Below are positions 22,584-53,911 of a stretch of DNA of 64,000 bases, in pieces (the first letter of the stretch is position 1; every line of letters starts with the position of its first letter). A program made the position numbers and the translations under genes. The notes below the pieces were generated by a model, which was given only the letters and a program-made list of their open reading frames with translations, did no database searches and was not told the origin of the DNA. The DNA is from Okamejei kenojei (lineage: Eukaryota): contig CM069161.1 of the NCBI GenBank assembly GCA_035221665.1, positions 6,200,001 to 6,264,000 on the forward strand. Direction: 5' to 3'.

Positions 22584-22637
22584 GGGGTTGGAGATTGCAA
22601 CCTTCACGTGGTCCGCCCTGTTTCGACCAATGCAATC
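22584..22637 (+). ncRNA. Minimal HDV-like self-cleaving ribozyme (predicted)
   Basis: P1 GGGGTTG/CCGCCCT (G1-U wobble, one mismatch), P2 GATTGCA/TGCAATC, P3 ACC/GGT, L3 TTCACGT, J4/2 CCAA. Confidence 0.72.
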
Positions 22638-22712
22638 AACTCGACGTGCACAAACAGAAGATCAAATAGAACAAGTTGTCCTACTTTAGGCTGTGCACGC
22701 CACACGAAAGAA
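22584..22712 (+). mobile_element. Short retroposon headed by an HDV-like ribozyme (family 1, copy A)
   Basis: 13-bp TSD GACTCCATGAAAT (22571-22583) / GACTCTATGAAAT (22713-22725); homologous to 38770-38908; ACACG-AAAGAA tail. Confidence 0.85.
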
Positions 22713-22860
22713 GACTCTATGAAATATAACAATTCTTAACCTCAATAAAATGGAATGTTAATTCTACCACCGTTGCACATCCTTGCACATCAATGCATTT
22801 CAGTACATTGAAATATTCAGGTATTGCGCAGAAGCTCATAAGCACTCTTAAATTTCATGT

Positions 22861-38319: not shown

Positions 38320-38752
38320 AGTCAGCACCTCTAGAGAACATGGATGGGTGACGTTTCAGGTCAAGAGTCTTTTTCAGGCAGTTTTGTGCCTGAATTACGG
38401 GTCTCGACCCGAAACATCACCTATCCATGTTCTCCGGAGATCGTTTCGACCCGAAACGTCGCCTATCTCCTTCGCTCCTTAGATGCTGCTGCACCCGCTG
38501 AGTTTCTCCAGCTTTTTGTGTAACCCCCCCACCTCTCCGCCTGCTGCCTGACATGATGAGTCACTCCGGCCCTTTGTGGCCTTTCGGGTCTAGACCCTTC
38601 TTCAGACTGAGTGTCAGGGGAGAGGGTGTCCAGGAAAACAATTCCCCTGACTCTAAGTCTGAAGAAGGGTCTCAACCCAAAACATCGCCCCTTCCTTTTC
38701 GCCATAGATGCTGGCTGACCTGCTGAGTTACCCCAGCATTTTGTGCCTATTT
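38320..38752. mobile_element. Cluster of nested and inverted PLE-derived repeats
   Basis: Several GACCCGAAAC and CCCTTCTTCAGAC units in both orientations. Confidence 0.7.
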
Positions 38753-38769
38753 ACTCAGAATAACTGGGT

Positions 38770-38822
38770 GGGGTGGAGGATTGCAACCTTCACGTGGTCC
38801 GCTCTGTTCGACTAATGCATTC
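38770..38822 (+). ncRNA. Minimal HDV-like self-cleaving ribozyme (predicted)
   Basis: P1 GGGGTGG/CCGCTCT (fully paired with wobbles), P2 GATTGCA/TGCATTC, P3 ACC/GGT, L3 TTCACGT, J4/2 CTAA (candidate catalytic C38812). Confidence 0.75.
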
Positions 38823-38908
38823 AACTCGACGTGCACAAACGGAAGGTCAAATACAACAAGTTGTCCAACAACTTTAGGCTGTGCATGCCACACGAAAGAA
38901 GAAGAAGA
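38770..38908 (+). mobile_element. Short retroposon headed by an HDV-like ribozyme (family 1, copy B)
   Basis: TSD AGAATAACTGGGT (38757-38769) / AGGATAACTGGGT (38909-38921); ACACG-A-(AAG)n tail. Confidence 0.88.
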
Positions 38909-40077
38909 AGGATAACTGGGTATAACTGTGATGAAGAAAAGAGTTCAACTAAAAAAAAAAAAAAATCAACTGAGAACAGATCCTTTTTTGGATTATGATC
39001 GACTCTGGACAAACAAACAATTGACTTGGAGGAAATTTCCAATCCAACTGCAGAATCTCAAGAGACCAAATTGCTTTTAACTTCTTCATATTGTTCAGCT
39101 TTTCCAATCCAAGTATAATATTTAATTTTGTTTTAAAGTCTTGACCCAGGCAGAAAATGTATACTCCATTTTGTTCGTGCTTAATATGTTGCACAACGGA
39201 TTAAATCCACTGCCACATTTTATCTAAAGTCAACAGCAATATTGATAATACCACACAGTCATTGCCAGTGACATCCACTGCCCGCGAACGGGTGAATAAA
39301 CGCCTGTGAGTAAAATAAGCTTTTGTTTCAGTGTTTTGTGTTGGTCCGCTTTAAATTGACATGCAGAACAAAGGATCAAAGAGACTGCTGTTCAATTACT
39401 TCAAAAACTGGCACAGGCAGCAAGCTCGATTTAAATCCCCAAAAGAAAAACAATGTTGCCCCTTTCATGGCTGTGGGTAACAGAGGTGTCCTTTTACAAA
39501 CAATCTTGTGCTGCCTTCTGCCAATTATACGCTTGCTCCTGGTTGCTGTGAACAATGCCTGCCAATAACAATTAGATGAAATCATTTGTATCAGATCCTG
39601 TAACTATCTCAACAAAATTGCATTAACTAGACTATCTGGAAGCAATTATCTTTTTAAAAAATATATATATTTGCATCTCTTCACCAGACTGTGTAACAGA
39701 TGTGAGCTCTCCACATTAGGCTGATGTAACAGTATGCAATGAAAACGTTCCCCAGAGCAACTCCACAGTTTTGCGTCTCTTCTGTAAATAGAGTTTGAAT
39801 TCACCACCCATCTACACAGCTCATCTGCCTCTTCTTTGCAGTGTAGGAAGGAACTGCAGATGCTGGTTTAAACCGAAGGTAGACACAAAAAAGCTGGAGT
39901 AACTCAGCGGGACAGACAGCAGCATCTCTGGAGAAAAGGACAGGATGCTGCATGTCCCGCTGAGTTACTTCAGATCACTGGAAATGAGAACTCCCTCCGA
40001 AACCCCCTCTTGAATGATGCCTGTGTTAGGATTAGATATTAGCTACAGGGAGAGGGTGGACAGACTTGGATTGCTTA

Positions 40078-52638: not shown

Positions 52639-53911
52639 AGAAGGAGATGAATAAAAAGAGATAAGAGGAAAAATAAATGCTGGAACCCTGTTGTACAAAA
52701 TACTGCAGTTACCAGAAATATAAAATGAAAGCAGATGCCAGAACTGAGGGGAGACCTGACAGAGGTATACAAAATTATCAGAGGCATAGAGAGGGTAGAC
52801 AGTTAGAACTTTTTCCCCCAGAGTGGAAAATTTCAAAGACTAGAGGGCAAGCTTTAAGGTGGGAGGACAAAGTTTACAGGAGATGGGCTGGGCAAGTCTT
52901 TTTTATCCACTACAGAGGATGGAGGAGGAGGCAGATACAGTAGTGGTGGCATTTACGATTTCTAGATAGGTACACGGATATGCGGGGAATGGAGGGACAT
53001 GGACCATGTGTAGGCTGAGGAGATTAGTTGATCTTGGCATCATGTTCGGCTCAGACATTGGAGCAAGAAGGTCCTTTGTTTGTGCTGTGTCTACGTTTTA
53101 ATTACTGTCCATTACAGCCAGACAGCAGAAGTGAAGGGAGGAACAGAAGTGAGAGGAAATGAATGTTTCGGATCAGCTCCGACCTCACATTAATGCAACC
53201 TCACAACCCCCACCCCTCCCATCTTGACGTCGTGCCCACCGCACCTGACCATGCTATCAGAACCCTTCCGTGAATGAGAGCCAAAGCCAGATATCAGAAG
53301 AGCCCCCCTCCCTACACACACACAGCCTGTCGTTCTAGCGCAGTGTGCTCATGATCACTGCAAAATGAGCAATTTGATCCTCTCAGACATTAATACACGC
53401 TTAGGAGTGAATTATAACTCTAGCCAGACTTACGTGAAGGTCACAAAATATCAAAGGGAGAGCAAAGAGCATGCAGCAATAGAAATCAAGGAGTTTTTCC
53501 TTTGCAAATGTTTTGACAATAAATCCATTTTGCTATTTGAAACTCCATTCCAGGTCTTCTTTGAGAGAAAAAAAAGTGAAAGTATTTGGTTTGCATCCAG
53601 TGGAGCGAAAGGGAAATATAGCAATTCCAGCGCTAGAAAAAACAAAGACCATTTCTGTGGTGCTCCTTTTATTTCTGAATTCTTTCAACTTTGCGAGAGG
53701 CCCTAGTAAAGGCTCCAGCGTTGTGGCACGGACATGTGTAAACACCGTCAGCGCTGGAGGAATGAAGGGGTGGAAGGACAAGCCATCATGAGCTGTTGGC
53801 CACGGTTGAGTTCTCTCGCCTCCAACTCGGTTGGATTCAAGTCCCACTTCAGGGATTTAAGCACAAAATCTCTGCGGAAGAACCAATTCTGCATTAGGAA
53901 GATATGCTTTA

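Follow-up and report, generated by a model that had tools for sequence, protein, structure and literature searches.

Does the 53-nt stretch at positions 38770-38822 of a 64,000-nt segment of the Okamejei kenojei genome (contig CM069161.1, positions 6,200,001 to 6,264,000, forward strand; hereafter the window) hold an HDV-like ribozyme, and if so, to what kind of element does it belong? An initial annotation had read the stretch as a very small HDV-like ribozyme that essentially lacks P4, is carried by a vertebrate repeat family and survives here in the copy most likely to still cleave. Our analysis, which combines fold modelling with comparison of genomic copies, indicates with good confidence that the stretch opens a high-copy repeat of ~140 nt that is likely derived, as a non-autonomous element, from a Vingi-type LINE and whose predicted P4-less HDV-like ribozyme would free it from read-through transcripts by cutting at its first nucleotide, G1. 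That the fold coincides exactly with the start of a retroposon of defined boundaries, and that it is kin to the heads of Vingi-type LINEs, were both absent from the earlier reading, and the interest lies in the family and its relatives, the 38770 copy itself not being special.

Results

Predicted P4-less HDV-like fold at the start of a short insertion

The order of P1, P2, P3 and P1.1 in the head is that of a nested double pseudoknot, in which 16 of 17 helix pairs form in the 38770 copy. The features of the insertion, and the second copy of the family in the window, are as follows.

38760..38769, plus strand: 5′ target-site duplication, 10 bp exact or 13 bp with one mismatch, ending directly at G1
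38770..38822, plus strand: predicted P4-less HDV-like ribozyme, 53 nt in this copy and 54 nt in the family, with the predicted cut at 38769/38770
38770..38776, plus strand: P1 5′ strand, partner 38799-38805 (7/7), with a G38772-U38803 wobble that is G-C in the majority
38777..38778, plus strand: J1/2, whose G38778 (A in the majority) allows a full decoy hairpin (38773-38779 with 38787-38793)
38779..38785, plus strand: P2 5′ strand, partner 38816-38822 (6/7), with U-U at 38781/38820
38786..38798, plus strand: P3 (3 bp) and L3 (38789-38795), the latter with the conserved active-site U, C and G and with C38791 for P1.1
38799..38806, plus strand: P1 3′ strand and G38806, the P1.1 partner
38807..38811, plus strand: linker replacing P4, 5 nt in this copy and 6 nt in 72 of 73 copies
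38812..38815, plus strand: J4/2 with the predicted catalytic C38812, its second position U, A or G by subfamily
38816..38822, plus strand: P2 3′ strand
38823..38895, plus strand: element body, with a predicted 8-bp long-range stem (38830-38837 with 38880-38887) and an end motif like Vingi-type LINE 3′ ends
38896..38910, plus strand: (AAG)5 tail
38912..38921, plus strand: 3′ target-site duplication
22584..22714, plus strand: second family copy in the window, with a P1 mismatch and an intact P2

All seven P1 pairs form, three of them G-U including the G1-U pair, J1/2 is 2 nt long, P3 is complete (3/3), L3 is the heptamer TTCACGT, P1.1 is C38791-G38806 and J4/2 reads C-U-A-A. The HDV-like parse first proposed for the site is confirmed for P1, P3, L3, the C-G P1.1 and the J4/2 with C38812, and its P2 is rightly placed but carries a U38781-U38820 mismatch that had gone unflagged. 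The proposed size of 53 nt holds for this copy but not for the family, whose 54-nt head is shortened here by a linker deletion seen in 1 of 73 copies. A natural HDV-type example of 48 nt exists, so a length of 53-54 nt is small without being a record.

Besides the G1-Y pair, the head has the U, C and G of L3, the catalytic C and the last A of J4/2, the second J4/2 base being U and not R; the conserved bases of L3 and J4/2 follow the descriptors in PMC6326823 (for this and the other papers cited by number, our statements refer to the accessible parts of their text). J4/2 is fixed as CRRA in one design descriptor of that paper, as against CUAA in the 38770 subfamily, and CUAA is also the J4/2 of the Rfam F. 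prausnitzii consensus. P1.1 consists of one C-G pair plus a possible U-U second pair, and fast natural ribozymes with a non-canonical second P1.1 pair have been described (PMC13635239).

No P4 helix is present, since the 5-6-nt linker allows at most one U-A pair. P4 had been described as reduced to a UUCG-containing stub, of which the absence of P4 stands; the UUCG, by contrast, is not a capped tetraloop in the 38770 copy because the linker deletion took the only U-A pair able to close it, and a second P4-less family (see below) has UUCC or UUUC at the same position.

Scanned on both strands with a structural descriptor, the window gave matches at only two places, the 38770 site and the family copy at 22584; a looser descriptor matched three times in a 1.2-Mb background, made up of 60 evenly spaced 10-kb stretches read on both strands, and each of the three is a family member. 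In Rfam searches nothing in the window reached the gathering score, 38600-39000 matched no ribozyme family at E≤10, and two family copies (L004 and L250) had no match at E≤1. The pseudoknot-free folding energy of the head was no better than that of shuffles (z 0.37), which a short pseudoknot would lead one to expect and which is of little help either way.

A high-copy family of short retroposons

The ribozyme fold makes up the first 53 nt of a 142-nt insertion (38770-38911) with the 10-bp duplication at both sides. In the 2.76-Gb genome that contains the window, the majority 54-nt head, which forms 17/17 helix pairs, has 1,259 exact occurrences (control, 0), and the five family copies met in 600 kb of evenly placed stretches scale to ~23,000 genome-wide (95% range about 7,500-54,000). 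The earlier proposal that a repeat family carries an HDV-like fold without P4 is borne out by the descriptor scans, these copy counts and the related heads described below. Statistics were drawn from 73 near-full-length copies, comprising 58 best matches to two queries and 15 met by chance, with matches picked for indels and partial copies kept out of the set.

Target duplications of 7-15 bp flank 65 of the 73 copies; in 50 of these 65 they touch or run into the G run at G1, and in the other 15 they lie 1-5 letters away. Such boundaries are typical of target-primed retrotransposition in which the 5′ end is fixed, here at the predicted cleavage site. With variable-length duplications, a simple-repeat tail, no coding capacity and dispersed copies, the family has the characters of a non-autonomous non-LTR retroposon. 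It is also present in contigs (their type is a guess) of eight public runs, seven with organism codes and one unlabelled, a finding of presence only; these contigs cover the element alone, and agreement before G1 is low (0.34-0.51 in the rows shown).

Full pairing (17/17) together with the core is retained in 43 of the 73 copies, and 72 have the catalytic C. Subfamily-level variation in the head is confined to two columns, J1/2 position 8 (A in 36 copies, G in 37) and the nucleotide that follows the catalytic C (U in 35, A in 30, G in 7 and C in 1). Neither column is constrained by the fold (p about 0.025, post hoc). Two-sided pair changes were absent among the 73 copies. The body gave a weak folding signal, with z −0.8 in young copies and −2.3 in an older one.

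Several copies are rearranged. In four (L365, L369, G000:C4:24758271 and C4:37358030) the segment between the P2 arms is apparently inverted, as if from recombination between the 7-bp inverted repeats. Two others (L239 and L041) have large internal deletions, which in L239 fuse the P3/L3 region directly to the 3′ end with the target duplication retained.

Other sequences were met around these copies. Just upstream of the insertion lies a copy (window 38659-38753) of an abundant repeat, family D1, of which 18 further copies were seen; its first ~30 nt resemble what we take to be a minimal hammerhead core of the Penelope-like type (no Rfam match at gathering score). Other stretches of this genome contain what are presumably CR1-like LINEs and a protocadherin-like frame, in keeping with a vertebrate. 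No host exon was recognised in the window among the 120 unmasked frames searched of 236 candidates, none of which passed the Pfam cut-off; a 142-aa unmasked frame at 53278-53703 (plus strand) has a weak DUF3010 match (E 0.0008) below the cut-off, probably by chance.

Vingi-type LINEs with related heads

An endonuclease family search led to decayed single-ORF LINEs in the same genome, whose frameshifted copies encode an endonuclease and RVT_1 with no RNase H match, and whose closest relatives are ~1,000-aa proteins on 3.1-3.6-kb contigs. A compact single ORF with an APE endonuclease and a reverse transcriptase (RT) and without RNase H is the architecture given for Vingi in PMC13708176. The Vingi label is provisional, being taken from this architecture and from characteristic motifs, and the 120 relatives listed included no named Vingi or Ingi reference. 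The only solved structures found were those of R2, L1 and group II intron RTs.

At least five families of these LINEs (L092, L103-L105, L112-L120, L161-L173 and L178), with 30-85% endonuclease identity to L092, each have their own HDV-like 5′ head, that of L178 being judged by eye. The head of family C has a bulged P2 and was missed by the descriptor, and that of family B has a U-A P1.1. Of 50 Vingi-type loci, many of them without a 5′ end, 11 (10 distinct) have a descriptor match 80-200 nt upstream of the endonuclease, and none has one on the reverse strand.

Across a set of 11 heads compared, which represent eight lineages in one genome, the pairs are kept in P1 (76/77), P3 (33/33) and P1.1 (11/11), with two-sided changes at P1 positions 4-7, at P3 positions 1 and 3 and in P1.1. 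P2, of unrelated sequence from head to head, is fully paired in 9 of the 11, and all of the heads have the catalytic C and the U, C and G of L3. The P4 region measures 5-6 nt in the mini elements and 16-41 nt in the other heads. Because these longer LINE heads of other sequence keep the same pairings, we read the HDV-like fold, on comparative grounds, as conserved and not due to chance.

The head of the 38770 family aligns best to the heads of LINE families A and D, with a score that none of 300 shuffles reached, the relation being one of similarity and not of near-identity. At the other end, the LINEs finish in CA-x-x-CG-(C/A)-AAGAAG, like the short element, with ~15 terminal nt in common. 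Two loci (L101 and L102; G000:C7:73.33 Mb and 72.64 Mb) share the same Vingi-type insertion and flank in opposite orientation, and represent either a segmental duplication or an assembly duplicate.

Search for the parent LINE

Four pattern searches found no LINE with the exact head or tail of the element, a result confined to close parents because exact patterns miss diverged ones. All eight long-linker matches read were local duplications, and no Vingi-type ORF joined in sense was found among the matches with the usual neighbour sequence missing that were read (30 of 55, 30 of 32 and 30 of 442). The 30 best matches of the endonuclease search belonged to another LINE type without the head, which we take to be Nimb-like, and a Vingi-type LINE appeared in 1 of 20 lower-ranked matches. 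A young LINE family with a 1,276-aa open frame (L051-L080, L062), presumably also Nimb-like, had no head-profile match.

For most pairs, the alignment of the body, minus its last 12 nt, to LINE 3′ ends did not exceed that of shuffles (best 10/300), and a derivation of the body from the end of a Vingi ORF was rejected, the alignment not being significant against shuffles. With the body non-significant, the description of the element as an internal deletion product is drawn from head and tail only. The parent LINE may be extinct, diverged or missed.

CPEB3-like heads and a second short family

The CPEB3 model RF00622 gave 30 matches over the cut-off of 35 among 59 scored candidates, the best at 66.8 bits, and 0/14 in control genomes. 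Many of these sister heads (L319-L339, L344, L346 and L348) are repeats that match the mammalian CPEB3 model at 35-67 bits, and it is these, not the 38770 family, that the Rfam HDV/CPEB3 models match. A Vingi-type protein match lies downstream in sense in 2 of the 30. L324 and L344 run into Vingi-type coding sequence, and a Vingi-type endonuclease start is visible by eye in all three that were translated (L319, L322 and L324).

Six of the 30 matches (L340-L343, L345 and L347, about 1511-1675) form, together with L169:600-682 on the minus strand, a second short family of ~165 nt with an AAG tail and a P4-less head of the same length, which has a 6-nt linker and different helices. Its head has a CPEB3-like core and its body folds strongly (z −2.95); most copies read begin with four G, the position-1 slot being U rather than G. 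The heads of the two mini families align (0-1 of 500 shuffles), and homology of their bodies is not significant (165-271 of 500 shuffles).

The 38770 family itself resembles the CPEB3 ribozyme in its identical L3 heptamer, in the G1-U pair, in a P1.1 of one canonical pair followed by U and, in its older subfamily, in a CGAA J4/2 (Rfam consensus). It differs in having no RF00622 match, other P1, P2 and P3 sequences and no P4, the close matches being the sister elements. At the level of sequence, the CPEB3 similarity of the sister heads suggests, but does not show, descent. Given that RF00622 matches of Vingi-type heads score as high as 66.8 bits and that these heads lead into the start of a Vingi-type endonuclease, we lean, if only slightly, towards a broader view in which Vingi-type LINEs generally open with an HDV-like ribozyme, at least two mini families run on the P4-less 54-nt form with thousands active in one vertebrate genome, and the mammalian CPEB3 ribozyme is the domesticated 5′ end of such an element.

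State of the 38770 copy

The choice of this copy as the one most likely to still cleave has to be given up: 1,259 exact majority heads have all 17 pairs, whereas the 38770 copy departs from the majority head by A>G at 38778, C>T at 38803, a 1-nt deletion within 38807-38811 and A>T at 38820. Even within the window it is not the better preserved, the damage to it and to the copy at 22584 being about equal (−13.4 and −13.7 kcal/mol). The change at 38803 turns a P1 G-C pair into G-U and that at 38820 a P2 U-A pair into U-U, each at a cost of about 3 kcal/mol. With the change at 38778, the P1 5′ strand can form a full 7-bp decoy hairpin with P3/L3 (−9.2 kcal/mol, versus −2.6 in the majority), and this hairpin is the pseudoknot-free minimum-energy fold. 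The margin of the native over the alternative fold drops from −11.3 to −5.9 kcal/mol, a rough figure that leaves out pseudoknot loop penalties. P1, P2 and P3 together are more stable in 62 of the 73 copies than here, in a sample biased to well-kept copies, and among the few randomly met copies this one is unremarkable.

Since no catalytic residue is lost, the copy may still cleave slowly. From these modelled energies, the 38770 copy is likely a decaying insertion that would cleave slowly, if at all, and likely cuts worse than its 1,259 intact siblings. The upstream flank is able to pair with P1 in two of three majority copies tested, so that activity would depend on context.

Discussion

Proposed mechanism and alternatives

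We propose that host transcription would read through a family copy, whose head may fold as the nested double pseudoknot and cleave 5′ of G1, with the C of J4/2 as general acid together with Mg2+, following the chemistry described for HDV ribozymes (PMC13635239). A Vingi-type endonuclease/reverse transcriptase acting in trans could then recognise the common 3′ end and insert the RNA by target-primed reverse transcription, in which case new copies would begin at G1, along the lines of models for ribozyme-bearing retrotransposons (PMC6765202, PMC4035085, PMC3414825).

The strongest competitor, though an unlikely one, is that the inherited Vingi-type ribozyme now serves mainly as an internal promoter or as a protein-binding or nuclease-blocking fold, with transcription starting at G1 and cleavage slow or unneeded. 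Exact starts at G1 fit a promoter equally well, the loss of P4 and a P1.1 with one canonical pair point the same way, and there are precedents in trypanosome L1Tc, whose Pr77 acts as promoter and ribozyme alike (PMC3383444), and in the R2 ribozyme fold, which has been described as 5′-end protection (PMC13708176). However, the catalytic C and the L3 bases are present in all 11 heads, the C also in 72 of 73 family copies, and natural P4-less ribozymes cleave at rates of up to more than 10 per min (PMC10879173).

Far less probable is an ordinary tRNA-headed Pol III SINE that fits the HDV fold by accident. In its favour, the head shows no folding signal over shuffles and no Rfam ribozyme match, and at 38806-38814 the 38770 copy contains a word that we take, by eye, to be B-box-like. 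That word is, however, a product of this copy's private deletion, ARAGORN found no tRNA gene in any of four loci, and descriptor matches outside the family number 0 in 1.2 Mb. Moreover, the head is homologous to LINE heads that have a long P4 in its place and helices kept by compensatory change, and this covariation already largely refutes the tRNA-SINE reading. That the host has kept the 38770 insertion as a regulatory ribozyme, like that of CPEB3, is scarcely credible, for its catalytic residues are all intact but three of the four changes in it destabilise the fold or divert it, and none of the frames searched in the window (120 of 236 candidates) was recognised as an exon.

Significance of the family

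If a P4-less ribozyme heads this retroposon as predicted, a form so far found almost only in gut phages would extend to an animal retroposon, and Vingi would join the LINE clades with 5′ ribozymes. More than 1,000 perfect copies and many natural variants offer a ready mutational series for a high-throughput cleavage assay, and the CPEB3-like sister heads are a direct lead on the origin of the CPEB3 ribozyme. Copies lying in introns on the sense strand would cleave host pre-mRNAs, which would put gene structure under a pressure open to testing. A Vingi ribozyme would also matter for gene-insertion tools built on Vingi in which the native 5′ UTR is retained (PMC13708176).

Comparison with known systems

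In the literature searched we found neither a P4-less HDV fold in an animal retroposon, which older papers, supplements, Repbase or patents may hold, nor a ribozyme on Vingi, including in the accessible text of PMC13708176 and PMC5786205, so that an earlier description is possible. PMC5786205 lists six LINE clades with 5′ ribozymes (R1, R2, R4, RTE and Ingi, plus LOA), Vingi not among them, and PMC13708176 describes Ingi and Vingi as sister clades.

Minimal drz and theta ribozymes (PMC10879173) are close in form, sharing an HDV fold without P4, a similar size (56 nt in a theta example) and a catalytic C placed first in J4/2. Nearly 99% of them, according to the same source, lie in Caudoviricetes phages, tied to tRNA 3′ ends, whereas the 38770 family is an animal retroposon with a target duplication upstream. 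We rejected membership of the theta class, as no tRNA 3′ end lies at the predicted cut in any of the four loci examined. Non-autonomous Vingi derivatives such as Vingi-1_EE (via PMC5786205) are short bipartite elements of the Vingi clade, the kind proposed here for the 38770 family.

In organisation, the family resembles NARTc, RIME and SIDER of trypanosomatids, derivatives of L1Tc/ingi with Pr77, which are likewise short non-autonomous retroposons headed by an HDV-like ribozyme shared with a LINE (PMC4035085, PMC5786205). The 38770 family differs from them in its animal host, in a 54-nt head without P4 compared with the 77-nt hallmark, in its (AAG)n tail, in that its ribozyme is a predicted one and in that its exact parent LINE did not turn up in our searches. 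The R2 SIDEs of Drosophila (PMC3414825) also join a 5′ ribozyme to a LINE 3′ end and are moved in trans by target-primed reverse transcription, but the 38770 family is dispersed instead of rDNA-specific, has an APE-type partner, counts thousands of copies and bears a far smaller ribozyme. By analogy, the family may work in the manner of NARTc/RIME and the R2 SIDEs, and what would be new, both as predictions, are a P4-less ribozyme at the head of an animal retroposon and ribozymes on Vingi-type LINEs.
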